From assembly GCA_036344135.1 (NCBI GenBank), contig JAYYUG010000050.1:1-48972 (forward strand): DNA of 48,972 bases, read 5' to 3'. A program made the position numbers and the translations under genes. This document shows positions 1,080 through 34,854 of this stretch, in pieces (the stretch's first letter is position 1; each line of letters begins with the position of its first letter). The stretch comes from Pseudomonadota bacterium. GTDB taxonomy: Bacteria; Pseudomonadota; Alphaproteobacteria; MED-G09. Under the pieces are notes generated by a model. That model saw only the letters and a list, made by a program, of their open reading frames with translations. It searched no databases and was not told where the DNA came from.

Positions 1080-1084
1080 GCTCT

Positions 1085-17901: not shown

Positions 17902-20900
17902 CTAAATAATATACATATCCGATATAGTCCCTGTTTGGGCACCGGAAGAATTGAGAATATCATAAACTCCAAAAACATCTGCGAATTCCCTAAACGTTAA
18001 ATCTATCCCGTCAGTACCGTTGGTGATGTTGCCGCCTACATTGTAAGTGAACTTGTCCGCTCCGCTGATTGTCACCTCTCGTCCGTCTTGAAGGGTCAAA
18101 CGCGCCGCATTTTTGGTGAAAAGACTTGTATCAATATAGGTGTTGGCGGGCAACTGGATGGTGTTGTCTCCGGAGGCGTCGGTAATACTAATCTTGCTGT
18201 TTTTAGGAAGTAACTGGGAGATAAAGTAGGTGTCATCCCCCTCCAGGCCTCTGTAGGTTGTTGCCTGACCGTCAAGAATGATGACATTGTTACCCGCGTT
18301 AAAATTAAGGGTGCCAGAAATAGCACTTTCGCTGTGTGCCTCCAAGATATTAACGGATGAATCTATCGATCCTGATAGGGAGTATTCTAAAGAAATTTTT
18401 GAAACTGTTTTATCCGAGAATTGCATGTATTCAATATTCGTAAGAGTATCGGTCCCTTCGTCAGCCGCTATGTTTGATGAAAAACCTATCCCGCTATGAT
18501 TATGGCAATACACGTAGAGAGTATCTGGCGCTGTATCAGAGACAATAATTTCTGTATACGCTCCAGTCTGACCAGGGGTCCCTATAACAGTAACACCAGT
18601 AGTATACTCACTACCGCCAGCGTGTATTCCATCAGATGTTGTACTGAATCTTAAGTGATGATTGGCGTTAGAAGCATCGGATTGATCAAATTTGTAGGTC
18701 ATTCCTCTGTATAAGGACGAAGACATTATCTGCGCTACGTCATTGACATAGAAGACATTTCCGTATCCATCATTCTTCAAACTTATAGTGAAAGTTTCAT
18801 TCTTCAATGAATGATTAACCGAAACTGTACCATTGTCATTTTTAGTAATGGTGAAGTTCGATGAAGAATCTTTATAGATAGCAGTATCGATGCCAGCTCC
18901 ACCATCAATGGTATCATTACCGGCACCTCCCTCGATGGAATCGTTACCAGCATATCCCAGAGCACTTTCATCACCTTCCCGCAAAACAATCGTGTCGTCG
19001 CCTGAATAGCCGTGAACCTTTGTGTTAATTGCAAAGGTCTCAAAGCCTTCATCTTTTCCTACAGCCAGATAATGTTTAAGACCAGATGCATAAGTACCTG
19101 CTGTGACAGCATCTTCCGCTGAAGAATTTTCGTTGAGATAGTATCTTTCGTTAAAACCGGGGGCGCCGGAATCTGCTCCAGAGACATAATCCGGTCCGGT
19201 ACCTATAGTGGCTAACATTTCCAATAAGTAAAAACTATTTATTGACTCTTCAGCTGACATATTGGTCCAGCTGGTTCTAAAAATGACAATTTCCATAATA
19301 TTGTCTTGATCAAAATCCCCATAACCCAATATTGTTCCGTTTGAACTGTCGTGAGAGCTGTCTAACGCTATCTCTTTTATTTCAAATCTTCCCTCACCAT
19401 CATTTAGGTACATCAAAGGTACAGTTCCGGTACTTCTAGATCCTGCAATATCCATATGCCCATCGTTATTCATATCTATTAATTGCCATGGCTCCGTCCA
19501 CTCCAGACGAGATCCGTATGCATCTTGTAGGGAATTAGAGGGGATAAGATTAGTGACATCGGTGAAATTACCTTGTCCATCATTGAGTAAGATTTGGATA
19601 TAATTTCCGCCATAATACGGTTCGGCTCGCGCCCAATGAATGGCGAGATCTATGTCTCCATCATGATCAAAATCAGACGGCATAGTTTTCATGTGGTATT
19701 GATTGTCTGTTCCATAGACAGAATCAGGGAGAGCAATTTTTGAATCTTCTGAGAATTGACCATTATCATTTATAAAAATGAGACTTGATACACTTCCGCT
19801 CCCAAACCCGGCAATGAGATCATCAAATCCGTCGTTATTTATATCAACAAGAGCTGCATCAAGAAGAACATTAAAACCTGTAATTTCGTTGGTTAAGGGC
19901 CAGTTAAGCAATTTTACATAAAGAGGTTGTAGACTATATAAGAATGTTCCATCGTTTTGTTGGATCAATTCGTATGGTCCTTCCTCATTTGAATGACCGA
20001 TAAAAATATCATCGAGACCATCACCGTTTATGTCTCCAACGGCCATAGAATGCACATCTACCGCAAAAGGATATGTATCTTCAAATAGAGCAGAATTAGC
20101 ATTTGTTGGAAATGGAAGCTTAGGAAATATTGATGCACGATCATTATTTGAAACTGAGGATTGGATTAAAATTAGTTCGGATGGTGGTACAGTAGAATCG
20201 CTATTACGCTTGGAATCTTCTTCTGTTGAGTGATTGATTGTAACAGCGCTGACAGGGCTTGAAGTTCCTATTTGTATTAAATCAGACCGTCTTCCTCCTG
20301 TTGTAATTGGCATAGTCGCATTAATTTCTGCATCATAGGTAAGTGTCCCATCTTTTGTGGTAAAAGCTATAAACGGCGTTGAAGTATCAATACCCGTACC
20401 ATAGCCCTTCCACATAGGCGCTATTACATCTTTTATACCGTCCTGATTAATGTCGAGGAAAATGACCGCCTGAGAAAACCAACTAATCAGTTTTGCTTCA
20501 TGAAATACACCAACATAGGTGTAAGCCGGGGCAATAGTGTCGTCATTAAATGTATGAATTGTACCTTTTATTTCTGTTTTCACTGTTTCGAGAAAAAAAT
20601 CGATATCAATCGTCTTATTGTCACCTGAAAAAACTATCTCTTTTACACCCGTTATAATATCCAGTGTATTTAGGGAAGAATTGGTGACATGAATTTCATC
20701 TCCAACACTACTGATTACATAATCCGTAGAATTGAGTAAGTGGTAAGTAATTTTATCGTCTCCACCTCCCATATTAAAAGTATTATTTCCACCAAAAAGT
20801 AAAACATGTTCATAAGCAGAAGTCCCGGTGATTGTCATACCCAAACTTGTGCCGTGTATAGTTGTTATTCCTGAAATCGTATCTCTGTACCCGAAACCAT

Positions 20901-21132
20901 CATCTGCCCAGCCCTCTAAGAGATTTATGATTGGGGATTCAGTGGCGTGCCAAAATGCATACTGAACATTGGTTCCCGAAATGGAATCATCTCCAGGACT
21001 CGCGACTACTGTTTGACCATTGAGATTGGTTAATTGATCGTTACCTTTTTTAGGATAAATGTTTGAGATGTCCGAGGATAATTCAGAACCATCAATTATA
21101 TCATCTTCATCTGTTCCATTATAATCCGCCAT
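17902..21132 (-). CDS. large secreted/surface Ca-binding protein: RTX-like repeats, FG-GAP/VCBS propeller and inserted cupredoxin-like domain
   Basis: No Sec signal. N-terminal GTDEDDIIDG; six DxDxDG-type motifs (DINQDG, DINGDG, DINNDG, DFDHDG, DMNNDG, DFDQDN); GYAGNDSI/GGAGNDTI/GGAGIDTA nonapeptides; YVYCHNHSGIG motif. Confidence 0.85.
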   Translation of the reverse strand: MADYNGTDEDDIIDGSELSSDISNIYPKKGNDQLTNLNGQTVVASPGDDSISGTNVQYAFWHATESPIINLLEGWADDGFGYRDTISGITTIHGTSLGMTITGTSAYEHVLLFGGNNTFNMGGGDDKITYHLLNSTDYVISSVGDEIHVTNSSLNTLDIITGVKEIVFSGDNKTIDIDFFLETVKTEIKGTIHTFNDDTIAPAYTYVGVFHEAKLISWFSQAVIFLDINQDGIKDVIAPMWKGYGTGIDTSTPFIAFTTKDGTLTYDAEINATMPITTGGRRSDLIQIGTSSPVSAVTINHSTEEDSKRNSDSTVPPSELILIQSSVSNNDRASIFPKLPFPTNANSALFEDTYPFAVDVHSMAVGDINGDGLDDIFIGHSNEEGPYELIQQNDGTFLYSLQPLYVKLLNWPLTNEITGFNVLLDAALVDINNDGFDDLIAGFGSGSVSSLIFINDNGQFSEDSKIALPDSVYGTDNQYHMKTMPSDFDHDGDIDLAIHWARAEPYYGGNYIQILLNDGQGNFTDVTNLIPSNSLQDAYGSRLEWTEPWQLIDMNNDGHMDIAGSRSTGTVPLMYLNDGEGRFEIKEIALDSSHDSSNGTILGYGDFDQDNIMEIVIFRTSWTNMSAEESINSFYLLEMLATIGTGPDYVSGADSGAPGFNERYYLNENSSAEDAVTAGTYASGLKHYLAVGKDEGFETFAINTKVHGYSGDDTIVLREGDESALGYAGNDSIEGGAGNDTIDGGAGIDTAIYKDSSSNFTITKNDNGTVSVNHSLKNETFTISLKNDGYGNVFYVNDVAQIMSSSLYRGMTYKFDQSDASNANHHLRFSTTSDGIHAGGSEYTTGVTVIGTPGQTGAYTEIIVSDTAPDTLYVYCHNHSGIGFSSNIAADEGTDTLTNIEYMQFSDKTVSKISLEYSLSGSIDSSVNILEAHSESAISGTLNFNAGNNVIILDGQATTYRGLEGDDTYFISQLLPKNSKISITDASGDNTIQLPANTYIDTSLFTKNAARLTLQDGREVTISGADKFTYNVGGNITNGTDGIDLTFREFADVFGVYDILNSSGAQTGTISDMYII

Positions 21133-21344: not shown

Positions 21345-21902
21345 ATGGCTGAAAAATATGATCATCTAACAGAACAACATCAAAGATTTATCGATGCACA
21401 AAAGATCTTTTTCGTTGGAACCGCTGCAGCCGAGGGCAATATTAATGTTTCTCCGAAAGGATTGGAAAGTTTAAAGATCGTAAATAAGAATAAGATTTTA
21501 TGGGTAAATTTGACGGGTAGCGGTAACGAAACAGCGGCGCATACTCAGGAAAATCCTAGAATGACTCTTATGTTTACCTCCTTTGAGAAAAATCCTCTTA
21601 TCCTACGCGTCTATGGAACAGTAAGAGCTATTCATCGACTTGATCCCGAATGGGAAACAGTGATCAATCATTTTCCTAAATCTCCCGGATCCCGTCAGGT
21701 GTTTGACCTTTCCGTCTCTTTAGTGCAAACATCCTGCGGCTATGCTGTTCCTTATTACGATTTTAAAGGGGAAAGGAGTACTTTAGAAAAGTGGAATGAT
21801 GCAGCAGGTGAAGATGGGATAAAAAAATACTGGGAAGAGAAAAACACCCAATCCCTCGATGGTATAGAAACGGGAATAGTTAAGAAAAATATCAGAAAAT
21901 AA
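21345..21902 (+). CDS. pyridoxamine 5'-phosphate oxidase-like (split-barrel flavin-binding) protein
   Basis: FFVGTA, NVSPKG, LTGSGNETAAH, RMTLMF.SF...P.ILR.YG and VQTSCGYAVP. Confidence 0.88.
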   Translation: MAEKYDHLTEQHQRFIDAQKIFFVGTAAAEGNINVSPKGLESLKIVNKNKILWVNLTGSGNETAAHTQENPRMTLMFTSFEKNPLILRVYGTVRAIHRLDPEWETVINHFPKSPGSRQVFDLSVSLVQTSCGYAVPYYDFKGERSTLEKWNDAAGEDGIKKYWEEKNTQSLDGIETGIVKKNIRK

Positions 21903-21934
21903 TAAAGAACATCGTCATCCGATTTTATGTTTGA

Positions 21935-23167
21935 TTAGTCTTCACCTGTGAATTCCGGTGAAGTTTCAACACCTAAGAAAATTTTTCCAAGCTCCTGGTA
22001 CAACGGATGGGCAACCCATCGATGGGTAGCACAGCCATGAGCATCTCTCAATTTCCTTTCCAAAGGACTAACCATGCGCATACCACTTGTTCCTGCAGCA
22101 TTATGAATTTTATCAACAACTTCCATTGAAGCATTCGCAGCATAGGTGCATGCCAATCTCCCAAGATGCGTTGCATGTGGAGATGGTTTTTCTAGTCCGT
22201 CATTCAGCTCATCCTCTACGGACCTCATAGACTCCATTAAGAAAGCTCGTGCCGATCTAAGTTTAGCTTCAGCTTCCCCTACACGGTATTGAGCAATAGG
22301 TCTTTCACGAGTGGTTGTGGTTGAAAGCATCGGAATCTTATTTTGGGCAATGTCTATAAATGTATCTATAGCTCCTCTTGCAACACCAATTGCGACTGCT
22401 GCTTTGTTATAAGCAAGACGAAGTGCTACAGGTACACGATAAGTAGGGTTAGGATATAAAGCCGGAACAGTAATGAGCTCAACTGAAGTAAAACGCTCAG
22501 GAACAAGAGCGCCATCTGCTACGACATCATGGCTACCTGAACCTCTTAAACCAGCTACATCCCATGTGTCTAAAATTTCCCATTCGCTTTTGTTTAAAAA
22601 CCACATTTTCATAATTGGTATTCCGTTGTCATCTAATTTGGGTTCATCGTTCTCAACGATAGGCGCCATCATGAAGCACCATTCCGCGTTATGACAGCCA
22701 CTAATAAAAGTCGTCTGACCCCAAACCTTATAACTTCCATCATCCTGTTTTATAGCTTTTGAAGGAAGGCTTCCGGGTCCTCCTCCCCCGCACATTATAA
22801 CATTCGGATTATCCAGATAAACTTCCTTTGCCAACTTAGGATCCATCCCACCCGCAGCCATGGCATTAATCTCGGAGCCTAACATGACATTCCAACCAAC
22901 AGAACCATCAATTGCCGATATGGCTTCTATGATCTCTATTGTCTCACAAATTGAAGCGTTCTCTCCACCCAACTCTTCTGGTAAAGCAAAACGAAAAAAC
23001 CCTGCGTCAACTAAAGTTTTTATTGTAACATCTGGAACTCGACGAATTTTTTGAGCTTCATCCCCACCTTTTACTATTACGTCACGAAGAACTTCTACTC
23101 TCTCTAAAATAGGAAGATGATTTATTTCTTTATCTTTATCGACAACATTAGTCTGACTGCTATTCAT
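21935..23167 (-). CDS. flavin-dependent monooxygenase oxygenase subunit (ACAD fold, HsaA/IacA-like)
   Basis: AGFFR..LP.ELGG, DGSVGW, FISGC..AEW, DTWDVAGLRGSGSHD, AAGTSG and LERKLRD; SD GAGGAG. Confidence 0.85.
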   Translation of the reverse strand: MNSSQTNVVDKDKEINHLPILERVEVLRDVIVKGGDEAQKIRRVPDVTIKTLVDAGFFRFALPEELGGENASICETIEIIEAISAIDGSVGWNVMLGSEINAMAAGGMDPKLAKEVYLDNPNVIMCGGGGPGSLPSKAIKQDDGSYKVWGQTTFISGCHNAEWCFMMAPIVENDEPKLDDNGIPIMKMWFLNKSEWEILDTWDVAGLRGSGSHDVVADGALVPERFTSVELITVPALYPNPTYRVPVALRLAYNKAAVAIGVARGAIDTFIDIAQNKIPMLSTTTTRERPIAQYRVGEAEAKLRSARAFLMESMRSVEDELNDGLEKPSPHATHLGRLACTYAANASMEVVDKIHNAAGTSGMRMVSPLERKLRDAHGCATHRWVAHPLYQELGKIFLGVETSPEFTGED

Positions 23168-23278
23168 TTCTTGCTCCTCAGTAATTGATGTGATTTTTTA
23201 AATTAAAACTATAAGCCAGCAAAAGTAAATAACATTTAAATAATAAACATATCTACAATGGAACTGTTAATTATTTTC

Positions 23279-24136
23279 TCAAAAGACAATGGTTTTTAAA
23301 CCATTTAATAATACACGTCTTTCTGAATGCATACGCACTGCTCTCAAAAGAACAGTTGATTCAATATCATAGCCGCTTTCTTGCATACTTTTAGGAGATA
23401 CGTTGTGATCGACACGCAATACATCCTGTTCGATTATGGGTCCCTCATCCAGTCCTTCGGTAACATAATGCGCGGTGGCACCAATGATTTTCACTCCTCT
23501 TTCATGCGCCTGATGATAAGGTTTTGCACCCTTAAAACCAGGTAAAAAGGAATGATGAATATTGATGCATTGACCTTCAATGTCTTTGATAAATTCCGAT
23601 GATAAAATTTGCATGTAACGAGCCAGGATGATTAATTCGGATCCCGTCTCAAGGTATACGTTCTTAAACATCTTCTCTTGATCTTGTTTTGTGTCGGAAG
23701 TTACCGGTAAATAGTGAAAAGGGATTTTATTCCATTCGACGAGATCTTTTGATACCTTATGATTGGATATGACTGCTTGAATATCTATGGGAAGAGACTC
23801 TATTTTCCAACGGTAAATCAGATCGTTCAGGCAATGGCCCTCTTCACTGACAGCTATGATAGTTTTGCAAGGTTTTTCTGCATCATAAAAACGTCCTTCT
23901 ATTTTAAATTTATTTAGTTCTTTTTGAAATTCCGCTTCTAAGATATCCAAGTTGAAATCCGAGGAGTCTTCCTTTTCAAAAGCAATACGGCTAAAGAATT
24001 TTTTCGTTTCAGGGTCGCTGAAGGAAGACGCCTCTGTCATGAAGGCCCCTCTGTTAAACAAAAAATGGGTCGCCGATGCCAACACACCGGGTATATCAGG
24101 ACATATAAACTGAAGTATGATTTTTTTTGCCTTCAT
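23279..24136 (-). CDS. purU: formyltetrahydrofolate deformylase
   Basis: N-terminal ACT domain (CPD.PG), GHCLNDL, LARYMQILS, INIHHSFLP.FKGAKPYHQA and LDEGPIIEQ. Confidence 0.96.
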   Translation of the reverse strand: MKAKKIILQFICPDIPGVLASATHFLFNRGAFMTEASSFSDPETKKFFSRIAFEKEDSSDFNLDILEAEFQKELNKFKIEGRFYDAEKPCKTIIAVSEEGHCLNDLIYRWKIESLPIDIQAVISNHKVSKDLVEWNKIPFHYLPVTSDTKQDQEKMFKNVYLETGSELIILARYMQILSSEFIKDIEGQCINIHHSFLPGFKGAKPYHQAHERGVKIIGATAHYVTEGLDEGPIIEQDVLRVDHNVSPKSMQESGYDIESTVLLRAVRMHSERRVLLNGLKTIVF

Positions 24137-24152
24137 ATTCTTTTACCCGAAA

Positions 24153-25364
24153 CTAAAGCATTAAAGCTCTTCCAACAAACCAGAAAGTCCCGAGAGCAAT
24201 CAATAGTGCTCCAGAGATATCATAAGCTAAATTTTGGTACTTTCTGAAACTCGTCTTCCCTAACACATAAAGTATTAAAACGGCAAGGAATACAGATAAA
24301 ATCTGTCCCAGTTCCACTCCGATATTGAAACCCAATAGACCAAGAACCAAACCATCCGTAGGCAATCCAAGCTCTAGTAAAACACCAGCAAATCCAAATC
24401 CATGAATAAGCCCAAAAATTATTGTGATAACTGGCATCGCCCTTTGAGCCTCATCCCTACCTTCTAGTAAAAACCCGTAGCATAAGGTAAATAATAACAA
24501 CCCTATCCATGTTAGGATATTGAGTGTTCCTCCGAAAATAAGCGCAGAAATAGCCAAAATTAATAATAAAAGCGTACCAAGCCAGACAAAGCGTTTCTTA
24601 TTCGTTTCATCAATTATCAACGCCTCAAAAGCAACCAGCAGTATGGTATATCCTATTAAAGCTTCAACTGCGGGTCCCGATGGTTGTACAAAACCAAGGC
24701 TCGCTAAGGCCAATGTAACGGAATGGCCAATAGTAAATCCGGTGATAGCCAACAAGAGTTGTCTTGCTCTAAAAGTAATCAACAAAATTGTTGCTAAGAA
24801 AGCCAAATGATCGTAGCCAGCAAGGATATGTTCAAAACCTAGGGATATATAATCAACAAAAATTGTGAGGTTACTTCTTTCACTCTCCCCTGATGATAAA
24901 GAAAAACTTGCTTCCTGGCGTGAGGAAGTAAAAATGTGTTCTTGCCAATCATTATTATCGAGAAGTATACGTGCAAAATGAATATGGCCTGCCGAAACTG
25001 GAAAAAAAGCTCCGTTGTAAATTGAAAGTTTTTCTCCATCTCCAGTACAGGTAAATTCTATCTTTGATTGTACATAACCATTATCGATGAGTTGCGTCTC
25101 AGGTCCTTTTAAAATCTGACAAGGCTGTCCAGAAACAGAAATCTTTAAATAATTTTTTAGGTGGGTTGTCAGCTGGTCTTGAAGGTTGGGTGAATAACCC
25201 TCCAAAACCGGCAAGAGAGTGACCTGGCGTGCAGGCACAGTAAAAACAGCTTTTGCTATATTTTCTTCAATCTCCCATTTTGAGAAAGACCTGCTCATTT
25301 GATGAGCATGAGTCTCAAACGAAAGAAAGGCTATAAAAGATATAAGTAAAAGTTTCCGGATCAT
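24153..25364 (-). CDS. long-form HupE/UreJ family membrane protein (periplasmic N-domain plus His-containing permease domain)
   Basis: Signal peptide ending ...THA-HQMS; GFEHILAGYDHLAF, FTIGHSVTL, FGLIHGFGFA and FNIGVELGQ. Confidence 0.88.
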   Translation of the reverse strand: MIRKLLLISFIAFLSFETHAHQMSRSFSKWEIEENIAKAVFTVPARQVTLLPVLEGYSPNLQDQLTTHLKNYLKISVSGQPCQILKGPETQLIDNGYVQSKIEFTCTGDGEKLSIYNGAFFPVSAGHIHFARILLDNNDWQEHIFTSSRQEASFSLSSGESERSNLTIFVDYISLGFEHILAGYDHLAFLATILLITFRARQLLLAITGFTIGHSVTLALASLGFVQPSGPAVEALIGYTILLVAFEALIIDETNKKRFVWLGTLLLLILAISALIFGGTLNILTWIGLLLFTLCYGFLLEGRDEAQRAMPVITIIFGLIHGFGFAGVLLELGLPTDGLVLGLLGFNIGVELGQILSVFLAVLILYVLGKTSFRKYQNLAYDISGALLIALGTFWFVGRALML

Positions 25365-25374
25365 TTTTTATATC

Positions 25375-26220
25375 TCATTCAAAGTATTTAATCTTGGCTC
25401 TTTTTTTAAGCCACACCATATACTGATCAACAGATTCTTCGTCATTCCTTCGTAAATATTCAGTTTTAACTTGCTCTTTAACATCATTAAATGGAATTCC
25501 TTCTCCTGCTATTGAACTCAACATATAAATAAAACTGTATCCCGTTGTCGATTCAATTTCAGTTGTAATTTGCCCGGGTTGCAAAGTTTCTATTAATTCA
25601 ACGAGGGCTGGTTCTAAATAATCTTTTAATTTTTTTATGGGCAATAAGACATTCGGTATCACTGGAATAATGGGATCACCGAGTTTCTCTTTTACAACAT
25701 CAAATTCTTCACCCGCTATAAGTAAACCTCTTACCTCATCTAAACGCTGCTCATCCTCTTCTTCTGTACCGTATTCAATGAAGAGTCTTTTGATATGAAC
25801 TTCTGAAGGTCTGGAGAAAAATTCAATGTTTTTGGAATAAAAATCAACAAGTTTTTCATCGTTTACTTCAGAAACTATACCTTCAGCGATAATCTTATCT
25901 AACATCTCAGAAACTATGGTTTTCCTTACCATTCCTTCGTTTTGAGGAAGATCAAGCTCTAATCCCCTTTGCAACAAAAGCTGTTCATCAATCAACCTTT
26001 CTAAAACAATTATCTTTTCTTCATCCGTAATTTGATTTCTTTTGTTCATCATTAGCGCTTCTAGAGCAAGATCCCAGTCCGATTGGTAAATGGGATGATC
26101 GTTTACAATTACCACCACGCCCTCATTAGCAGAGTTTTTTTTGGAGTCAGGAAGAACACCAAAAAAAATAAAAACGATACCAATTAATAAACCTGAAAGT
26201 AAAAGGAATGTCTTTCTCAT
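25375..26220 (-). CDS. membrane-anchored SurA/PrsA-like foldase with degenerate parvulin (PpiC) domain
   Basis: N-terminal TM helix, VNDHPI, LERLIDEQLLLQRG SurA-N helix, L.PGQI...IES..GY and PF.DVKEQV. Confidence 0.8.
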   Translation of the reverse strand: MRKTFLLLSGLLIGIVFIFFGVLPDSKKNSANEGVVVIVNDHPIYQSDWDLALEALMMNKRNQITDEEKIIVLERLIDEQLLLQRGLELDLPQNEGMVRKTIVSEMLDKIIAEGIVSEVNDEKLVDFYSKNIEFFSRPSEVHIKRLFIEYGTEEEDEQRLDEVRGLLIAGEEFDVVKEKLGDPIIPVIPNVLLPIKKLKDYLEPALVELIETLQPGQITTEIESTTGYSFIYMLSSIAGEGIPFNDVKEQVKTEYLRRNDEESVDQYMVWLKKRAKIKYFE

Positions 26221-26229
26221 AGTGCTAGT

Positions 26230-28458
26230 CTAATTTTGTGAAACAAAAATAGGTGATGACCATGCACGGTGTTCTTCTTTAGAAAGACAAAGATCATCCT
26301 TATCGACTCTATAATCACCCCAACATGGGTTAACCTCGATACAATTTCCTTCTTTATCATATGTACAACGCGGAGCGGATCCGTTTATGGTATCGGTCGG
26401 CTCTTGAATAGCTCGCACATAATATATCGCTTCACGATCATTTGCTATAAATTCGTTATCTTCAAATTCTACCGTACATCCATTCTCATTATCTTCGCAT
26501 GGCAAAGACAGCCATGGATCCAAAATTAAGTCATCGATTGCCTCAGAGGAATTTATCTGAGGAGTAATCTTTATAATTTCTACTCTCGTAATCTTTAATC
26601 TTTCTGAAGAAGGATTATAACATTCTCCTGAGCATAACTTTTCAATCCTCTCATTGGGTAATCCGTTACTAGTGAACTCGGGACAACCCGGTTTTTGTTT
26701 AAAGGCTCCAACAGCTCTAACCACAAATCGAGGATTGTTATTTAAAGATAGCTCGGAGCCCATCGGATTGATAGCACCGTTAGAAATTTCATCAAACCAC
26801 AAAAGAATTCTTGGGCCAGAAGTTCCATAGATCTCCTTTCTGTTTAAGGAATCCCAAATTCCATCGCGAGATCTGTCTTTAACATGAACAGCAGCCAACC
26901 CTCCTTGTGTCCAAAATGCCTGTTGCCTTTCAAGTTCTGTTAAAGCAAAGCCCAATCCTCCTTTTAATATATCCTCATAAGTGATTTCATCAATGCTGGA
27001 CTTGACAGGTCCAGGGTCCGGATTCGTTGCATTGCGCCAAAATTTATTTATTCCACCCGCTGCTTCTGTTGTTGTTAATCGGTCAACAGGTTTGTATCCA
27101 GTTCCCGGTTTAGCTCTATGATTGTCGGAAGCCGCTATAAAACCCCATTTAAAATTGGTGGGTAGTTGGTTTTCAAAATTAGTGATAGCCAATCCGTACT
27201 GTACCGATGTGGTAGGGATGTGGTTAAAAGATGGCAAAAAACAATCCCGACATTGGTTTGAATCTAGCCATTCCTCAGCGTTTTCTCCTGAAACCGCAAT
27301 ATGTCCAGCCACACCAAGACTGGCGTGGATTTCTCTTGCCGTTACTGCTCTTTTTTCACATTCAGCATCGGTTTCTCCATCCGCAAGGCATCTCTTTCTT
27401 ATTATTTCACCCGCTTGCCAGCACGAGGGAAGGAACTCGGTAGTTGCTTCTGGACAGACGGGGTTATTAATATCTCCTATAACCTGTCTATAAGAGCGAT
27501 ACTCTTCCGAATTCCCGTGTCCCGACATAACTTCGATAATTTTCATTTTATCAGGACGCATCTTTGGTGATAACTGTTTGTCCCATGAGGTTGTTGGAGG
27601 CGTGTAATAACCCCAGGTGGATCCGTGAGGAATTATCAGAGGATCTAAGGATTGTTCTTCAAGTTTCCGCACGAGATCTCCAGGTGTGTTAGCGAATTCG
27701 TAACAACTTTCCTCCAACTCATTTGATGGAGAATTTTCATCACAAAAAGGGATGCCTCTTATCTCATTTACAAAATACTGAAAATCGGAATAGTGAGTAA
27801 ATTTTTTGATATCCAATATTCCAACTATTTTAGGCATAAGAGCATTGGAGTTAAGTCGAAGAGAATTCGTAGCTACACCTCCCGATCCTATCGGTCTCTT
27901 GGATAATTTGTCATCCTCAAGATCTTTAAAAATAACATTCTTATGGCCATAGTGATCTTCTGGCAATGATCCAACCTGTGTCCATTCAAATCCTATAAAA
28001 GGTATAACGTCATTACTTTCCTCACCGTTGACCTTAGAACATTGACGAATAAAATCTTTTGTTTCTGTCCACTTCCTTGGGGTGGAAGCCTCCGCATGAT
28101 CCGTAATAGCCCAAAAATCGATGGAAGAACAATACCGGGCGTAATCACAGGCATCGGCCATGGGATGTACCCCTTCACCTCCAAGTATCGGTAAAGACCA
28201 CCAAAAAGCATCGGTGGAAAATGTAGTATGGACGTGCAGATCGCCAAAAAGTATCTGTTTTGAATCGTCTCCGTTCAGAAGATTAGTAGCTTTTTTTTGA
28301 GAGAGTGTTCTTTCAGCAATAATATTCTCAGGCAGTGGTTCTCCCTGAAATTCTTCAACATGTCTAGCACGACCAAACCATCCCTGATACACCGCCATTA
28401 GAAATACAGATGATCCAATAATTGCAATTAATAGAACAAGAGAGATAATTTTTTTCAT
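26230..28458 (-). CDS. DUF3604 domain protein (PHP-like metallohydrolase), Cys-rich, N-terminal membrane anchor
   Basis: FGDLHVHT, ITDHAE, GFEWT, GHKNV, IPHG, SDNH, YGTSGPR, YYVR and RAWSSPI; about 20 Cys. Confidence 0.88.
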   Translation of the reverse strand: MKKIISLVLLIAIIGSSVFLMAVYQGWFGRARHVEEFQGEPLPENIIAERTLSQKKATNLLNGDDSKQILFGDLHVHTTFSTDAFWWSLPILGGEGVHPMADACDYARYCSSIDFWAITDHAEASTPRKWTETKDFIRQCSKVNGEESNDVIPFIGFEWTQVGSLPEDHYGHKNVIFKDLEDDKLSKRPIGSGGVATNSLRLNSNALMPKIVGILDIKKFTHYSDFQYFVNEIRGIPFCDENSPSNELEESCYEFANTPGDLVRKLEEQSLDPLIIPHGSTWGYYTPPTTSWDKQLSPKMRPDKMKIIEVMSGHGNSEEYRSYRQVIGDINNPVCPEATTEFLPSCWQAGEIIRKRCLADGETDAECEKRAVTAREIHASLGVAGHIAVSGENAEEWLDSNQCRDCFLPSFNHIPTTSVQYGLAITNFENQLPTNFKWGFIAASDNHRAKPGTGYKPVDRLTTTEAAGGINKFWRNATNPDPGPVKSSIDEITYEDILKGGLGFALTELERQQAFWTQGGLAAVHVKDRSRDGIWDSLNRKEIYGTSGPRILLWFDEISNGAINPMGSELSLNNNPRFVVRAVGAFKQKPGCPEFTSNGLPNERIEKLCSGECYNPSSERLKITRVEIIKITPQINSSEAIDDLILDPWLSLPCEDNENGCTVEFEDNEFIANDREAIYYVRAIQEPTDTINGSAPRCTYDKEGNCIEVNPCWGDYRVDKDDLCLSKEEHRAWSSPIFVSQN

Positions 28459-28474
28459 GTTATTTTACCTTTAG

Positions 28475-29557
28475 CTAAACCCCAAAACCTTGTATTTCTG
28501 CGGCTTCTTTCCTAACCCTTTCTGGGCCACCAAGAATCTGACGTGCTAAACCAATCCTTTTAAACCAATAATGTAAACCCAAAAGGTCTGTAAAACCCAT
28601 TCCTCCATGTACCTGAGTAGCAATCCTTGCCAGATTATGCGCTACCTCTGATAGATGTGCTTTTGCATGACATGCTGCAAGGCGTGACTCTTCAGGAATT
28701 GAATCCTGTGCATAAGCAGAATACCAAACAAGTGCACGGCAAGGCTCGAGTTCCGCTGCCATCTCAGCACACATATGCTTAACAGCCTGAAAAGATCCTA
28801 TAACCCTATTGAATTGTTTTCTCTCGAGAGAATATTCGACAGCTTTCTTCAACATGCTGTCACTTGTGCCTAACATATCTGCTGCCAACACCACTCTTCC
28901 AGCATCTATAACTTTATCAATAATCTCTTTTCCACCAGATATTTCTTCTGCCTTGCAAGAATTAAAAATAACCTCTGAAACAGGTCGAGTGCTATCAATG
29001 GTTGGTATTTCAGAAATTTCTACATCCTCTTCTTTTGTATCAACAAGATAAAAATTATTGTCTACAACCGTTACAATTATTCTGGGATCATGCTCTCCAT
29101 CCAAAGCAAAAATACTTGTTCCAGAAATCTTTCCGTTGTCAATTTTTAGACCTGTATCTTCGCGTGAACCAACTACTTCATTAATTGCAATGCATGCGCT
29201 AACTTCACCTTTTGCAATTTGCGGTAGCCACTTCTCCGCTAAATCCGATGATCCTTTATCCAAAAGACTTATAGGTACCATCACAGAATTGGCTACCCAC
29301 AATACGGGGGCCACATATTTTCCAATCTGTTCGGCAACTAAAGAAGCTTCAAGTACTCCCAATCCTGAGCCCCCATACTCCTCCGGTATTAGAAGTCCAG
29401 GAAGACCCATTTCTACAAACTGATCTTTGAGAATGTTTCGTAACTCTTTATCACCACCTGAATGGTTTCGAATAATATCCACATCACAGACGGACTCAAT
29501 CATCTTAGAGACACTTTCAGATAAAATTTCTTGTTCTTCAGATAATGCAAATTCCAT
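28475..29557 (-). CDS. acyl-CoA dehydrogenase, short (beta-type) subunit
   Basis: IPEEYGGSG, R.QF.R.IGSFQAVKH and QVHGGMGFT; 360 aa; 1-nt overlap with its partner. Confidence 0.9.
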   Translation of the reverse strand: MEFALSEEQEILSESVSKMIESVCDVDIIRNHSGGDKELRNILKDQFVEMGLPGLLIPEEYGGSGLGVLEASLVAEQIGKYVAPVLWVANSVMVPISLLDKGSSDLAEKWLPQIAKGEVSACIAINEVVGSREDTGLKIDNGKISGTSIFALDGEHDPRIIVTVVDNNFYLVDTKEEDVEISEIPTIDSTRPVSEVIFNSCKAEEISGGKEIIDKVIDAGRVVLAADMLGTSDSMLKKAVEYSLERKQFNRVIGSFQAVKHMCAEMAAELEPCRALVWYSAYAQDSIPEESRLAACHAKAHLSEVAHNLARIATQVHGGMGFTDLLGLHYWFKRIGLARQILGGPERVRKEAAEIQGFGV

Positions 29558-30759
29558 TATTTTTTTTCCTCTAACATGGGTTTTGGTTCTCTTGGCATTC
29601 CCAAACCAATTTCACTTATTATATTTTTTTGTATTTGGGCTGTTCCCCCTCCGATAATCAGACCAAGATCGAACATATAACGCCATTGCCATTTTCCTGA
29701 ATCATGATCGTGATTGCTTAAACCATAGATTGTTCCGAGTTCTCCGAGTAAATCAATAGCAAAGCCTGCGAGATCGTGATTAAGTTGGCATCCGTTTAAC
29801 TTCACAATCAGTTTACCCATCTTAACATCTAATCCTTTATGAGATGCTGTTAGGGACCGTAAACTATTATATGACATACTAAGGACTCTTCCTTGTAAAC
29901 GCATTAGACGGTCAAGATGTACTGGGTTATTGATAAGTTTTTCGCCATTAATAGTCTCGACATTCATTAGGTTTACTATCTCTTTCAGCCTCGTTGCTGC
30001 TTGATTAGGGTCTCCTAACATACCTCTTTCGTGTTTTAGGGTAGCATTTGCGACATACCATCCTTCGCCCCTATTACCGACTATATTGGTCTTAGAAACA
30101 CGTACATCGGTAAAAAACACTTCGTTGAATTCTGCGTGTCCTGTCATAGTCATTAGAGGTCTAACGTCAATCCCAGGGGTTTTCATATCAATAAGGATAT
30201 AAGAAATTCCTTTATGCTTGGGAGCGTCTGGTTCAGTTCGGACGAGACAAAACATCATATCTGCAAACTGTGCAGTTGAAGTCCAAATTTTTTGACCATT
30301 AATTATAAAGTCATCCCCATCATCGACTCCTTTAGTTTGCAAAGAAGCAAGATCAGATCCTGAGCCTGGTTCCGAATAACCTTGACACCAAATTATCTCG
30401 CCTTTGATTGTTTTCTCAATCCATGATTTTTTTTGTTCTTCTGTTCCAAGTTCTAAAAGAGTAGGCACAAGCATTGAAATACCTTGATTAGCCATTCCAA
30501 GTGGAGTTTGAGATTCTGTAAATTCTTCAGCAATTATTCTTGATTTTAATACATCTGGTTCAGCGCCAAATCCTCCATACTCTTTTGGTATAGTTCTTGC
30601 TGCATACCCATTTTTTATTAATTTCTCTTGCCAATTTGACTCTTTGTCAGCTGTATAAGCACTATCACTTGCTCTACTTGACATATGATTATTTTTGGAT
30701 AAGAACGATTTAACTTCTTTTCTAAATTTTATATATTCTGGTCCTGGATTTAAATCCAT
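29557..30759 (-). CDS. acyl-CoA dehydrogenase, catalytic (alpha-type) subunit
   Basis: WCQGYSEPGSGSDLASL, NGQKIWTS, FNEVFF, TLKHERG and IGGGT..IQKNII. ATG at 30759 with SD GGAG preferred. Confidence 0.92.
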   Translation of the reverse strand: MDLNPGPEYIKFRKEVKSFLSKNNHMSSRASDSAYTADKESNWQEKLIKNGYAARTIPKEYGGFGAEPDVLKSRIIAEEFTESQTPLGMANQGISMLVPTLLELGTEEQKKSWIEKTIKGEIIWCQGYSEPGSGSDLASLQTKGVDDGDDFIINGQKIWTSTAQFADMMFCLVRTEPDAPKHKGISYILIDMKTPGIDVRPLMTMTGHAEFNEVFFTDVRVSKTNIVGNRGEGWYVANATLKHERGMLGDPNQAATRLKEIVNLMNVETINGEKLINNPVHLDRLMRLQGRVLSMSYNSLRSLTASHKGLDVKMGKLIVKLNGCQLNHDLAGFAIDLLGELGTIYGLSNHDHDSGKWQWRYMFDLGLIIGGGTAQIQKNIISEIGLGMPREPKPMLEEKK

Positions 30760-30859
30760 ACTTCTCTCCAATAATAAGTTTGTGTTCAGACGATTTTAAT
30801 ATATTGTCCTTACTACAATTAGGAAAGAATATATTATATAGATGGGCAAGGAGATTAAA

Positions 30860-31417
30860 ATGAAAAAAAATCCAAAAATTTTACTTTTTATTCTTTTCTT
30901 CATGATATTTAGCACCATTCTTAATGAAAGGATTTCTGCTATGGAAGAGAACGCTTTTTCTTTCGCATTTGAATCAATAGAAGGACAACCGATGCCTTTG
31001 GATCAATACCAAGGTAAAGCTCTACTTGTTGTAAATACTGCTTCTTTATGTGGTTTTACTCCACAATACGAAGGTCTTCAAAGCCTATGGGAGGAATATA
31101 AAGATAAAGGTTTAGTCGTAATTGGAGTTCCTTCCAATAACTTTGGAAAACAAGAACCCGAGGGTGAAGAAAAAATAAAAGACTTTTGTGAAACAAACTT
31201 TGGAATTGATTTTCCAATGACAAGTAAAGAGGATGTTAAAGGTGAAAATGCTCATCCCTTTTACGAATGGGCAAACAGTCAATCTGGAAAAAATCCTAAA
31301 TGGAACTTTTATAAATATCTAATAAGCCCAGATGGGTCTTATTCGGGTTTCTATAGTTCAATGACGAAACCAAAATCTGGAAAAATGATAAAAGCGATAG
31401 AAAAAATACTCCCATAA
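30860..31417 (+). CDS. exported Cys-type glutathione peroxidase-like thiol peroxidase
   Basis: VNTASLCGFTPQY, PSNNFGKQE, FC and WNFYKYL; N-terminal hydrophobic signal. ATG at 30860 follows AGGAG. Confidence 0.92.
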   Translation: MKKNPKILLFILFFMIFSTILNERISAMEENAFSFAFESIEGQPMPLDQYQGKALLVVNTASLCGFTPQYEGLQSLWEEYKDKGLVVIGVPSNNFGKQEPEGEEKIKDFCETNFGIDFPMTSKEDVKGENAHPFYEWANSQSGKNPKWNFYKYLISPDGSYSGFYSSMTKPKSGKMIKAIEKILP

Positions 31418-31420
31418 AAA

Positions 31421-31843
31421 ATGAAGAGATTGTTACTGTTATTACTCCTATCGTCACAAACGGGCTATGCGTTCGCAGAACTTCTTTTGAGTAATGAATG
31501 GGCAAGGCTAACGCCAAGCGGTATGGGTTCTGTTTATGTCACAATTGAGAACAAAAATCCTTTTAACGAGGTTTTACTGACAGCCAAAAGTGATTCAGCA
31601 AAGATAGTGACAATACATGAAACTGTACGCGAAAATGATGTGGTAAAAATGAATCACATTATAGGAGGAATAAATATCCCTAAGGGGGAGAGTGCAATTC
31701 TTGAGCCCGGTGGATATCATATTATGCTAATGAATATAAATAAGAATCTTTCTCTCGGAGATCGGATAAAAGTAACATTAATTTTTGAAAAAAGTGGGGA
31801 AGTGGAATTAAACCCAATTCTTAAGCTCAAACCTCCTTTTTAA
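31421..31843 (+). CDS. periplasmic copper chaperone PCu(A)C
   Basis: Signal peptide, WAR, and an H-x10-M-x22-HxM motif (IHET...KM...PGGYHIMLM). Confidence 0.92.
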   Translation: MKRLLLLLLLSSQTGYAFAELLLSNEWARLTPSGMGSVYVTIENKNPFNEVLLTAKSDSAKIVTIHETVRENDVVKMNHIIGGINIPKGESAILEPGGYHIMLMNINKNLSLGDRIKVTLIFEKSGEVELNPILKLKPPF

Positions 31844-31896: not shown

Positions 31897-33327
31897 TTAG
31901 GCAGCAGTATAACCAAGAATAGCTTTGACCTCGAGAAACTCCTCAAGACCAAATTCTCCCCATTCTCTACCATTGCCTGACTTCTTATATCCTCCAAAAG
32001 GTGCATTAAAATCCATTTGAGCGCCATTAACATGGACGTTTCCTGAACGAATCCTTTCTGCTACTTTTATGGCTTTTTCCTGGCTTCCAGAAACATAACC
32101 TGAAAGACCGTATTCTGTGTCGTTTGCAATTGCTACGGCATCATCTTCATCTTTATATGGCAGAATAGAAACAACCGGTCCAAAAATTTCTTCTCTTGCT
32201 ATGGTCATGTCATTATTAACGTCTGCAAAAACAGTAGGTTTTATAAAATAACCAGCATTTAAACCTTCAGGTTTACCAGGTCCGCCGGCAACCAAAGTGG
32301 CACCTTCTTCAATTCCTTTTTCAATTAAACCTTGAATTTTATCGAATTGAACTTCACTGACAACTGGTCCTATTCCTCCAGGGGCAACATCTTCCGGGTT
32401 GCCAACTACTGTATTTTCGGCAGTTTCTTTTGCAATTGCAATAGCCTCATCCTGTCTGTCCGCAGGAACTAGCATACGAGTTGGGGCATTACATGATTGA
32501 CCAGAATTAGTAAAACAACCACTAACTCCTCCAGCAATAGCTGTTCCAAAGTCTGCGTCATCAAGAATAATGTTTGCAGATTTACCACCCAACTCTTGCG
32601 CAACCCTTTTAACTGTATCAGCTGATGCTCTTGCAACTGCAATACCTGCCCTAGTTGAGCCAGTAAATGACATCATATCAATATCCTTATGAGCTGACAT
32701 AGCCTCTCCTACAGTTGGTCCATCGCCATTAACTAGATTAAAAACACCTGCAGGCACGCCTGCCTCATCCAAGATTTCAGTAAACAAGACAGCATTCAGT
32801 GGTGCAATTTCAGATGGCTTTAAAACCATGGTGCATCCAGCTGCAAGTGCTGGAGCAACCTTACATGTAATTTGGTTTATTGGCCAATTCCATGGAGTAA
32901 TAAAACCACAAACCCCTACGGGTTCTTTTCTAATCTTGGTATTACCTTTATCTTCTTCAAAATCATAATTTTTCAAAATCTCAAGATATGTACCCAGATG
33001 ACCGGCTCCTGTAGCAGCTTGAGCTGCTTTTGAAAGCCAAAGAGGTGCTCCCATTTCAGAAGAAATTGTTTCAGCAATTTCATCATATCGTGTTTGATAA
33101 ACTTCCAAAATTTTACCTAGTAGTTGTAATCTTTCTTCTTTAGAAGTTTGCGAAAAACTAGCAAATGCATTCTTGGCAGCAGCAACAGCATTGTCTACGT
33201 CCTGTGCATTTCCTAGAGCTATTCTTCCTATGGCCTCTTCTGTGGCAGGATTAATAACATCGTAATGCTGTGGATCGGATGGGTCTACCCATTCTCCATT
33301 AATATAAAACTTAAGACACTCTTTCAT
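31897..33327 (-). CDS. NAD-dependent aldehyde dehydrogenase
   Basis: ITPWNWP, LKPSE, FTGSTRAG, ELGGKS, NSGQSCNA and EEIFGPV. ATG at 33327 with SD GGAGG preferred over 33384. Confidence 0.95.
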   Translation of the reverse strand: MKECLKFYINGEWVDPSDPQHYDVINPATEEAIGRIALGNAQDVDNAVAAAKNAFASFSQTSKEERLQLLGKILEVYQTRYDEIAETISSEMGAPLWLSKAAQAATGAGHLGTYLEILKNYDFEEDKGNTKIRKEPVGVCGFITPWNWPINQITCKVAPALAAGCTMVLKPSEIAPLNAVLFTEILDEAGVPAGVFNLVNGDGPTVGEAMSAHKDIDMMSFTGSTRAGIAVARASADTVKRVAQELGGKSANIILDDADFGTAIAGGVSGCFTNSGQSCNAPTRMLVPADRQDEAIAIAKETAENTVVGNPEDVAPGGIGPVVSEVQFDKIQGLIEKGIEEGATLVAGGPGKPEGLNAGYFIKPTVFADVNNDMTIAREEIFGPVVSILPYKDEDDAVAIANDTEYGLSGYVSGSQEKAIKVAERIRSGNVHVNGAQMDFNAPFGGYKKSGNGREWGEFGLEEFLEVKAILGYTAA

Positions 33328-33444
33328 TTGGTCCTCCTTTAAATCCCTGTACGTCATTACAGCACAATCAATAAAAACCAACAATCTCTTTTACATATAA
33401 TTAAGAAATAATTATATTAAGGCAAACAACCATGGGAAAAACTA

Positions 33445-34854
33445 ATGGCTAAACCTTATCCAAAAGAAGAACATTTAACAGGAAATTTTGCTCCTATTCG
33501 AATGGAAAGCAACATCGATGACATAATCATAGAAGGTGAAGTTCCCAAAGAAATAAATGGAAGCTACTACAGAAATGGACCTGATCCAAAGTTTCCACCA
33601 AGAGGTGATAATTCTCATTGGTTTGGTGGTGATGGCATGATTCATGCTTTTCATATTAAAGATGGCAGGATTTCTTATTTAAATCGTTGGATGAGAACGG
33701 TAAAATGGTTAAAAGAGCACGAAGAACAAACAGCTCTTTGGTCGAGTGGTATGGATGTAATGAATAATGACCCGTTAGTATCAAATATTATAACTAATGG
33801 ATTAGCAAATACCGCAGTTGTTTCTCATGCAGGGAAAATATTGGCTCTCGAGGAAGCGCATGCGCCTTTTGAGTTTGATCCGTTTACCTTAGAGTCTTTA
33901 GGCTCACATACTTTTGATAACACTCTCGAAGGCCCAATGACCGCTCATCCAAAAGTTGATCCAATAACGGGAGAATTACTATTCATTGGATATATGGCTG
34001 ATGGCTTTTTTAGTGATACAATTAGGTATACGGCAGTTTCTAAAGAAGGAAAGATAACCAAATCTGAACTTATTAAGGCACCATTTCCATCTATGGTCCA
34101 TGACTTCTTTGCAACTCAAAATTATGTAATAATACCGGTTTTTCCTTTAACAGGTGATTTTGAAAGAGCTTTAAATGGTGGTCCGCCTTTTGCTTGGGAA
34201 CCAGAAAAAGGGAGTCACATTTGTATTCTTCCTAGGAATGGTTCTGCCGAAGATGCAAAATGGATTGAAGCTGATCCTTCTTTTGTATTCCATTATATGA
34301 ATGCTTATGAGGAGAATGGTTCTATAATTTGTGATTTAATGGAATTCGGAGTGCCTCCTCTTTTTCCTTTTGCGGATGGAACTATGCCAACACAAACTGA
34401 TGCTGAAGCAAAACTTGCAAGATGGAAAATTGATATTAATACTTCAAAAATTAATAAGACTTCTCTTGATAATATTACAGGAGAATTCCCTAGGTTCGAT
34501 GAGAGATTCGCTCTCCAAGAATATCGGCATGGTTATTATGCTGGATCAATTGGTGATCATGCACCAGGCATGAGCATGAATTCGATTGTCCACTATGATC
34601 ATAAGACGGGAGAAAGAAAGGAATATACTACTGAAGTCGGAGATGCAGTAGGTGAACCAGTATTTATACCTAAATCCAAAGATAGCAATGAGGGAGAGGG
34701 TTGGGTGATAGCTACAGTTTTCAGGGCAAAAGAAAATCGTTCAGATTTGGTTATTTTAGATGCAAATCATGTTGATGAAGGACCTATTGCTAAAGCACAG
34801 CTGCCACATAGAGTGCCATACGGTTTCCACGGATGGTTCGAAAATAGAGCATAA
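33445..34854 (+). CDS. carotenoid oxygenase (RPE65/CCO) family dioxygenase
   Basis: RNGPDP, GDGMIH, and four Fe-ligand His in TAHPK, MVHDF, VFHYMNA and YGFHG; EFPR and EPVF. Confidence 0.94.
   Translation: MAKPYPKEEHLTGNFAPIRMESNIDDIIIEGEVPKEINGSYYRNGPDPKFPPRGDNSHWFGGDGMIHAFHIKDGRISYLNRWMRTVKWLKEHEEQTALWSSGMDVMNNDPLVSNIITNGLANTAVVSHAGKILALEEAHAPFEFDPFTLESLGSHTFDNTLEGPMTAHPKVDPITGELLFIGYMADGFFSDTIRYTAVSKEGKITKSELIKAPFPSMVHDFFATQNYVIIPVFPLTGDFERALNGGPPFAWEPEKGSHICILPRNGSAEDAKWIEADPSFVFHYMNAYEENGSIICDLMEFGVPPLFPFADGTMPTQTDAEAKLARWKIDINTSKINKTSLDNITGEFPRFDERFALQEYRHGYYAGSIGDHAPGMSMNSIVHYDHKTGERKEYTTEVGDAVGEPVFIPKSKDSNEGEGWVIATVFRAKENRSDLVILDANHVDEGPIAKAQLPHRVPYGFHGWFENRA

Follow-up and report, generated by a model that had tools for sequence, protein, structure and literature searches.

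A Conserved Unit of Genes for a Divergent DUF3604 Protein, a SurA/Parvulin-Like Protein and a HupE/UreJ-2 Protein: A Candidate Envelope Metallohydrolase Module in Marine Alphaproteobacteria

The D-S-H Locus

We analyzed a stretch of 48,972 nucleotides (nt) from an alphaproteobacterial genome of the MED-G09 lineage (assembly GCA_036344135.1, contig JAYYUG010000050.1, positions 1 to 48,972), hereafter the window, with the focus on three genes that we call D, S and H. These three open reading frames (ORFs) lie on the minus strand in the order D, S, H, with gaps of 9 nt (D-S) and 10 nt (S-H), and encode a divergent member of the DUF3604 family, a SurA/parvulin-like protein and a HupE/UreJ-2 membrane protein, respectively (Table 1). 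We found that D, S and H form a conserved genomic unit, the linkage of which holds in both directions of search. A first-pass annotation, made from the letters of the window, had described three coupled, envelope-targeted genes, and this description agrees with the short gaps, the hydrophobic N-termini of D and S, and the signal peptide of H (as read by eye).

On the same strand, the three genes are flanked by two acyl-CoA dehydrogenase (ACAD) genes upstream (16-nt gap) and by purU downstream (16-nt gap). The source genome consists of 1.34 Mb in 110 contigs and is 90% complete, and the window is AT-rich, with a GC content of ~38%. The closest named records to D (64-71% identity) come from marine metagenome-assembled genomes and single-amplified genomes labelled Rhodobiaceae or OCS116 cluster. 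Neither the urease alpha subunit (PF00449) nor the large subunit of NiFe-hydrogenase (PF00374) was found across the whole 90%-complete genome, which extends the earlier remark that no urease or hydrogenase lies nearby.

Properties of the D, S and H Proteins

D scored 82.7 bits against the Pfam family DUF3604 (PF12228; cut-off 20.4). The match to the 591-position profile consists of two stretches only (313-413 and 3-68) and is not full-length, whereas the second DUF3604 protein of the window spans profile positions 3-591. Because of this two-stretch match, and because D is only 25-27% identical to the second DUF3604, D is, by its sequence, classified as a divergent DUF3604 subfamily, which we designate DUF3604L and which comprises 327 cluster representatives at E ≤ 1e-30. 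The NCBIfam model for CehA/McbA metallohydrolases (NF038032) gave 22.7 bits for D, below its cut-off of 80.

The first-pass annotation had credited D with a full set of PHP-type ligand motifs and about 20 Cys. All of the motifs are present, namely HxH (H75, H77), DH (D120-H121), E158, H172, H278 and DxH (D445, H447), and there are exactly 20 Cys. In an alignment of 40 full-length relatives (29-48% identity), H75, H77, D83, H121, E158, H172, H278, D445, H447, H314 and H525, as well as 16 of the Cys, are either invariant or shared by at least 90% of the sequences. The first nine of these positions presumably correspond to the nine ligands of solved PHP enzymes. The twin-arginine motif was not found in D; therefore, given its 20 Cys, D would have to fold and acquire its metal outside the cytoplasm.

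The AF2 model of D has a pLDDT of 92.6 and a pTM of 0.93, and the N-terminal hydrophobic stretch is modeled as a helix (residues 2-24). Its best solved fold is 3E38 (VIA Z 17.0, rmsd 3.6, 237 aligned residues, 23% identity; Foldseek E 2.4e-5). Further matches are to the PHP proteins PsfC (7RTY, VIA Z 12.9), EndoQ (Z 11.8), RNase AM (Z 9.2) and the PHP domain of Pol III alpha (Z ~8-10), compared to Z ≤ 4.6 for unrelated structures. In the model, D contains a PHP barrel with a conserved ligand set, all nine presumed ligand positions being carried by the barrel region. When D, H and their profiles were searched by sequence against PDB chains, no meaningful match emerged (best E 0.17-0.25, to unrelated proteins). 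A Cys-rich helical insert of D (residues 332-383; 27310..27465, minus strand) matches CHCH-domain proteins, characterised by twin-Cys helix hairpins, weakly and without significance in a profile comparison (E 0.24); the resemblance may reflect a disulfide-stapled helical hairpin only.

S exceeds the Pfam cut-offs for SurA_N_3 (33.7 bits; cut-off 27.2) and Rotamase_2 (33.3 bits; cut-off 27) and starts with a hydrophobic stretch, as expected from the earlier reading of S as a SurA/PrsA-like protein with a transmembrane (TM) anchor. The NCBIfam equivalog models for SurA, PpiD, PrsA and EpsD gave 16-50 bits, all below their cut-offs of 109-493. Across an alignment of 31 S sequences, E79 and L124 are the only invariant residues, and conservation of 90% or more was not reached by any His; the identity of S between lineages is 23-28%, where D keeps ~50%. 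The alignment suggests that S may be a non-catalytic parvulin with no conserved peptidyl-prolyl isomerase (PPIase) site. Both the fast evolution of S and the invariance of E79 and L124 only would fit a role in binding better than one in active isomerisation.

H scored 130.6 bits against the Pfam family HupE_UreJ_2 (PF13795; cut-off 24.5) over residues 172-403; no other Pfam family was matched at E ≤ 0.01, the classical HupE/UreJ family included. There are 2911 relatives of H at E ≤ 1e-3 among 8000 scored candidates. The N-terminal part of H reads ETHA/HQMS, the slash being the cleavage site placed by eye, and His21 is thus the putative mature N-terminus, in accordance with the earlier claim that mature H begins with His. 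Of 47 relatives, 38 have His and nine have Asp in the column of this residue; it is His in all 49 aligned H ORFs of other loci (16 further ORFs are unaligned there). In the short H proteins that accompany canonical DUF3604 genes (see below), the first residue after the signal peptide is His (9/12) or Asp (3/12).

The AF2 model of H (pLDDT 86.6) contains an outer domain, residues 21-157, with the fold of periplasmic metal-binding proteins: zinc-bound ZrgA (8F1B; VIA Z 12.5, rmsd 2.9, 122 aligned residues), PA4063 (7AMX; Z 10.9) and Cu-bound Ang-1 (9GCE; Z 9.7, rmsd 3.3, 126 aligned residues). In the last comparison, model residues 21-157 fall on chain residues 1-157 and His21 overlays His1. The Foldseek matches of this domain have E values of 2.8e-5 to 8.8e-5, the latter for Ang-1 (9GCE; prob 1.00). 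Among 47 sequences, the outer domain shows no variation at H68, C82, C106, H127 and E142, and conservation of at least 90% at H129. In the membrane domain, the invariant polar residues are H179, D185, H186, H214, E234, H321, N347 and E351, each of which recurs in 60-63 of the 65 H ORFs from other loci, so that the His-bearing TM motifs noticed earlier are conserved. The model supports the view that H has a histidine-tipped periplasmic domain of a metal-binding type.

Conservation of the Linkage

A seven-gene string that includes ACAD-ACAD-D-S-H-PurU is syntenic in 14 loci of relatives at 64-96% identity; this is weak evidence because these loci come from close kin. A broader sample was seeded with a D profile, using one genome per species, and S and H were identified with hidden Markov models built from relatives. 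Of the 80 loci kept, 42 contain both S and H, two contain H only (both are cut by contig ends) and 36 contain neither (14 of them truncated). When the sample is restricted to the 56 loci flanked by 2.5 kb or more on each side, S and H are present together in 34, neither is present in 22, and there is not a single locus with S only or H only. Triads most often run D-S-H, the ORFs abutting or overlapping; S-H-D, and an H-S pair that diverges from D, are seen as well. By record titles, triads are found in Alpha- and Gammaproteobacteria, Myxococcota, Bdellovibrionota, Binatota and Spirochaetota, and cultured carriers include Maricaulis maris DSM 4734, Hyphobacterium vulgare KCTC 52487 and Hyphococcus sp. 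ECK-19. Apart from the triad genes, the D-seeded loci share no widely common ORF cluster, the next largest being acyl-CoA dehydrogenases (13 loci).

The reverse search was seeded with H in 401 genomes of the phylum, 61 of which have H-type matches (E ≤ 1e-10). The 20 best places, with ~95 further matches left aside, comprise 12 D-S-H triads, two S-H pairs and six solitary H genes; thus, the gene-neighborhood check proposed with the first-pass annotation came out in favor of a conserved linkage. In 11 of the 12 triads, a canonical DUF3604 is combined with a shorter H of ~330 amino acids (aa). PF12228 was detected in 24 of the 401 genomes, and 23 of these 24 also have H, compared to 61/401 overall; the remaining genome is an assembly of 1,890 contigs with D fragments only. 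It should be noted that the 24 genomes span 20 genera and that kin are not independent. Full-length canonical D genes are within 5 kb of H in 22 of 34 cases, typically at a distance of 1.25-1.3 kb, which is the length of S. The other 12 include three with S (two in the source genome and one elsewhere) and nine without it. All five genomes examined in which the DUF3604L locus is without S and H carry PF13795 genes elsewhere.

Several variants of the module were observed: a tandem pair of DUF3604L genes without S and H (locus L096, 9914..14434), and a tandem pair of S genes before H (locus L117, 10690..12277; locus L087, 3275..4734).

D-S Contact and Co-Diversification

We modeled a complex of D (residues 62-742) and S (residues 28-281), using our own alignments and three controls. 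The ipSAE of the D-S model is 0.79, whereas the best control scored 0.00; no less than 55% of contacts are common to the runs, and the partner pLDDT is at least 79. Among solved complexes, 58 of 80 passed the score mark, as did 2 of 110 mismatched pairs, a calibration that is only rough here, own alignments having been used. A pass due to a memorised structure seems unlikely because, to our knowledge, there is no solved complex of the D-S kind. On the S side, the predicted interface is formed by the parvulin-like domain (residues 131-138, 184-205 and 242-257); on the D side, it is formed by the start of the first barrel strand (65-71), D114 and several segments of the beta-sandwich (550-552, 581-586, 595-600, 616-619 and 657-662). 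The interface takes in D114, which is invariant, and the near-invariant F135 and P189 of S. From the secondary structure, it appears to lie on the barrel side that faces away from the ligand ends of the strands. Of the complex prediction that had been suggested earlier for the three proteins, the D-S part gave a positive result, and the model supports direct binding of S to D.

A tree of 61 S proteins, built with a quick method and containing several long branches, consists of two clades, each with 100% SH-aLRT. One clade contains all 11 S that adjoin a canonical D, plus six from clusters ordered S-H-D or similar; the other contains all 41 S that adjoin DUF3604L, plus three more. S (S1) and the second S protein of the source genome (S2) fall in different clades, as do both S of locus L115. 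The S clades follow the D subfamily; therefore, S has diversified together with its D. Each of the three DUF3604 genes in the source genome has a TM-anchored SurA/parvulin-like gene of its own after it (Table 1). S1 and S2 are 24% identical, in their N-terminal parts only. No HupE gene was found in the second D-S module (43951..48964).

Genomic Surroundings

Table 1. Features of the D-S-H locus, of the second D-S module in the window and of the third DUF3604 locus of the source genome (the domain limits in D are approximate)
Feature	Coordinates	Strand	Description
D	26230..28458	-	742 aa; divergent DUF3604 (DUF3604L), N-terminally anchored, Cys-rich, PHP fold; putative trinuclear metallohydrolase
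PHP-type barrel region of D with large inserts, ~residues 66-545	26824..28263	-	PHP structure alignments start at 66-71 and end at 535-541
C-terminal beta-sandwich of D, ~residues 546-742	26233..26823	-	All-beta from residue 543; Ig-like matches 548-742, Z 3.5-4.4
S	25375..26220	-	281 aa; TM-anchored SurA_N and degenerate parvulin (Rotamase_2); predicted partner of D
H	24153..25364	-	403 aa; HupE_UreJ_2 membrane protein with signal peptide and periplasmic N-domain
Periplasmic beta-sandwich of H, residues 21-157	24894..25304	-	His21 first; ZrgA/PA4063/Ang-1-like fold
HupE/UreJ-2 transmembrane domain of H, residues 165-403	24156..24872	-	PF13795; AF2 helices
Second DUF3604	44790..46691	-	633 aa; canonical, full-length; signal-peptide-like start
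S2	43951..44790	-	279-aa Rotamase_2 protein; overlaps second DUF3604 by 1 nt
TonB-dependent receptor	46787..48964	-	Upstream of second D-S pair, 96 nt from the pair
Cytochrome P450	42671..43945	+	Adjoins second D-S module
Third DUF3604 with the SurA-like ORF after it (locus L001, other contig of source genome)	2..2469	-	DUF3604 of 675 aa with lipoprotein-like LGC start; TM-anchored SurA-like ORF cut by contig end

Acyl-CoA dehydrogenase, thiolase or MaoC genes are present within 5 kb upstream of D, on the same strand, in 9 of the 80 D loci, all from marine Alphaproteobacteria; these neighbors are a weak clue to the substrate. In SAR86 loci (L071 7744..14378, L064, L081, L094 and L102), a DUF3604L gene without S and H occurs in the arrangement MFS_2 - rhomboid - D - ... 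- MFS_2, with the rhomboid protease gene directly before D. Coupling to a TonB receptor as a general feature of the triads was considered and rejected: the receptor is found in the flanks of 7 of 54 triad loci, in none of them within 300 nt, with a profile built from 13 sequences that may miss some.

Scans of the region 21800..31000 were at chance level for both promoters (28 versus 24.6±5.1) and terminators (6 versus 6.8±2.9). The upstream regions of D have no common k-mer, and their architecture is heterogeneous. The palindrome GTTAT-N0-7-ATAAC, a Zur-like core, is absent from all upstream regions searched, 41 of triads and 34 of non-triad loci. RNA-labelled runs contain only 0.05-0.09 of the sampled words of the window, and short contigs from such runs (90-99% alike) correspond to parts of PurU, H, D and the ACAD genes and to the H/S junction (25292-25442). 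These contigs do not show transcription of the locus, and DNA carry-over is possible.

Elsewhere in the window, a glutathione peroxidase gene and a PCu(A)C copper-chaperone gene (30842..31843, plus strand) are divergent from the ACAD-ACAD-D-S-H string, and an aldehyde dehydrogenase gene (minus strand) lies head to head with an RPE65-type carotenoid oxygenase gene (plus strand; 31897..34854). The window is rich in genes of lipid/isoprenoid oxidation, which include the RPE65-type oxygenase, the P450, an HsaA-like oxygenase (21935..23167) and the ACADs. A protein of 1076 aa with FG-GAP repeats and RTX calcium-binding repeats (17902..21132, minus strand) is probably secreted or located at the surface.

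Discussion

The closest solved fold of D, BVU_3505 (3E38), likewise combines a PHP barrel with a C-terminal beta domain; however, D is twice as long, has large Cys-rich inserts and a membrane anchor, and is undetectable by sequence against the PDB. Homologues of BVU_3505, Sb-PDE and No-PDE, are described in excerpts of PMC11656708 as PHP-family phosphodiesterases with trinuclear Zn; those excerpts report no partner genes for them, whereas D has S and H. By the titles of their entries, the best folds for the N-domain of H, ZrgA of V. cholerae (8F1B/8EZW) and PA4063 of P. aeruginosa (7AMX/7BGO), are periplasmic zinc-binding proteins; these are free soluble proteins, whereas the H domain is fused to a permease, and the identity is 6-11%. 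ZrgA and PA4063 work with ABC-type zinc uptake. The RbAng-1a-HupE/UreJ-2 "anglerase" permease (Franco Cairo et al., Nat Commun 2025; PDB 9GCE; excerpts of PMC12537917) is like H in having a signal peptide, an N-terminal His, a beta-sandwich periplasmic domain, a linker and a PF13795 membrane domain; however, neither the single sequence of H nor the H profile matched 9GCE at E ≤ 1. According to the same excerpts, Ang-1 binds Cu (dissociation constant, Kd, 74 nM) and Ni (Kd 220 nM) via His1 and is proposed to feed the permease. The Ang-1 site consists of His1 and Asn41, whereas H also conserves H68, H127, H129 and E142, which suggests a richer site. The searched text of PMC12537917, supplements excluded, names neither DUF3604 nor a PPIase among the neighbors.

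Helper proteins for exported or metal-dependent enzymes are known in several forms. YcdX of E. coli is a PHP-family Zn phosphatase, the neighbor gene of which, ycdY, is said to aid maturation of the Zn cofactor (excerpts of PMC4464133), and the pair is akin in kind to D-S. However, YcdY is of the TorD/NarJ type, unrelated to S, and the pair is without a permease. YcdX and YcdY are cytoplasmic. MeeF and MeeY, two proteins of the TerC family in B. subtilis, resemble our proposal for H in that they are membrane proteins of a metal-transport type that metalate exoenzymes during Sec export (excerpts of PMC10550928). Unlike H, they belong to an unrelated family, are general rather than enzyme-specific, are Mn-specific, and have no private chaperone gene. 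In Pseudomonas and Burkholderia, the gene for the exported hydrolase LipA precedes that for the lipase-specific foldase Lif, a private periplasmic chaperone with an N-terminal anchor, which binds LipA in its folded state; Lif is, however, an all-helical steric chaperone unrelated to SurA/parvulin, and no metal permease is involved.

We consider it evenly balanced whether D, S and H make up one envelope module consisting of an exported metallohydrolase, its private holder and a metal-handling permease; a dedicated unit for folding and metal handling is plausible. In such a module, D would be exported unfolded via Sec, tethered by its N-terminal helix, and would form disulfides and fold into the PHP barrel and beta-sandwich. 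The nine conserved positions of D would hold a multi-metal, probably trinuclear, center hydrolyzing an ester; by analogy, a phosphoester is the most likely substrate. Membrane-anchored S would serve D as a private holder or chaperone, binding it directly with the parvulin-like domain. H would expose His21 at the tip of its ZrgA/Ang-1-like domain, catching a divalent metal (Zn, or Cu, Ni or another) above the HupE/UreJ-2 channel, and would handle this metal for D, either handing it to S-held D or moving it across the membrane for D. That S and H fold D or insert its metal is what we infer from gene order and the predicted interface. More specifically, we tentatively propose an extracytoplasmic metalation machine, aware that this proposal may well prove wrong: S would clasp newly exported D, H would pass metal, by its domain or its channel, into the tri-metal site, and the machine would have been duplicated and co-evolved as D-S(-H) sets and be common in marine oligotrophs.

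Several observations weigh against this interpretation. Neither S nor H is present at the 22 full-flank D loci mentioned above, many D paralogues stand alone, and nine of the 12 canonical D genes without a nearby H are also without S. A 45% paralogue of D without S and H is found in a sister genome (G001, contig C21, locus L039 1711..9533), directly after genes for an acyl-CoA synthetase, two MaoC-like proteins, an SCP-x-type thiolase and a DUF35-like OB-fold protein, and facing a Rieske-type oxygenase gene; we take this set to resemble genes for degradation of steroid or isoprenoid side chains. Conversely, a 100% complete genome (G387) has an orthologous S-H pair and no D, by either the D profile or PF12228. 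This pair (locus L121, 2947..14892) closes the string TonB receptor - PepSY_TM - dihaem cytochrome c - S - H; genes for an ECF sigma factor, for FecR and for a TonB transducer receptor come next, and the context looks like metal uptake, not enzyme maturation. Excerpts of PMC12537917 describe HupE/UreJ proteins as importers, and this direction alone does not feed a periplasmic enzyme. Finally, no metal-regulator motif was found upstream of D.

The uptake-like context of the S-H pair without D suggests another scheme, in which D frees metal from an imported carrier by hydrolysis (or a reductase frees it), the histidine-tipped domain of H catches the metal, the channel imports it, and S docks D to H. 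The TonB receptor 96 nt from the second D-S pair of the window, and the uptake role proposed for the HupE/UreJ family and Ang-1 (excerpts of PMC12537917), point the same way. We consider this scheme unlikely: a TonB receptor is in the flanks of only 7/54 triad loci, none within 300 nt (with a profile that may miss some), many D genes have no H nearby, and the conserved nine-ligand PHP set argues that D itself is a metalloenzyme. The first-pass annotation had raised the possibility of a Ni- or Co-dependent D, which would make H its Ni/Co permease, and the known Ni/Co transport by classical HupE/UreJ permeases (cited in excerpts of PMC12537917), the Ni binding of Ang-1 (Kd 220 nM) and the lack, in the genome as searched, of a urease or hydrogenase that would compete for H are consistent with it. 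However, H matches PF13795, not the classical family; the Zn proteins (Z 12.5 and 10.9) come ahead of Ang-1 (Z 9.7) as folds for its N-domain, and Ang-1 itself prefers Cu; and characterised relatives of the closest solved fold of D carry Zn3. Thus, the Ni/Co assignment is not specifically supported and seems to us quite unlikely, and Zn is at least as likely a metal of the module as Ni/Co.

It is also conceivable that the three genes are neighbors without a common mechanism, S being a general periplasmic chaperone and H a general metal importer, with the genes co-regulated or syntenic. D often stands alone, and the ACAD-ACAD-D-S-H-PurU string is syntenic in the lineage, so local synteny alone proves little. 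Nevertheless, S and H accompany D across distant lineages while the flanks change, the S and H ORFs often overlap, the S clades track the D subfamily even inside one genome, the D-S model stands at 0.79 versus 0.00, and the dependence of D on H at the genome level is 23/24; mere neighborhood is, therefore, improbable.

The first-pass annotation knew of no functional characterization. This holds for DUF3604 and the triad: a literature search, not covering supplements, found no paper on the D-S-H triad or on DUF3604 function, and excerpts of a preprint (bioRxiv 10.64898/2026.10.18.759936) state that neither metal binding nor activity had been reported for DUF3604. It does not hold for the H type, given the Ang-1-HupE/UreJ-2 study of 2025 (PMC12537917). 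Literature queries with PF12228, PF13795, HupE_UreJ_2 and IPR022028 returned nothing, and queries that combined HupE UreJ with peptidyl-prolyl and PHP gave nothing relevant among the papers listed. The triad is an uncharacterised module made from known kinds of parts; new here are the support for D-S contact from the complex model, the S clades that follow the D subfamily, the separate S for each of three DUF3604 genes, and the fold of the H outer domain.

Conclusions

How exported enzymes acquire their metals is acknowledged as an open question (excerpts of PMC10550928), and the D-S-H triad offers a compact three-gene, genetically testable case for how such enzymes obtain the right metal. A function for the module would be the first for two large families, DUF3604 and PF13795, the latter with one study from 2025. 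The carriers of the triad include streamlined ocean bacteria. Three DUF3604 genes, every one of them paired with a separate S, are retained in a genome of 1.34 Mb; therefore, the D enzyme probably matters for turnover of some ester-linked nutrient of seawater. If the metalation reading is true, the triad would be an enzyme-specific chaperone-plus-permease system that loads a hydrolase outside the cytoplasm.

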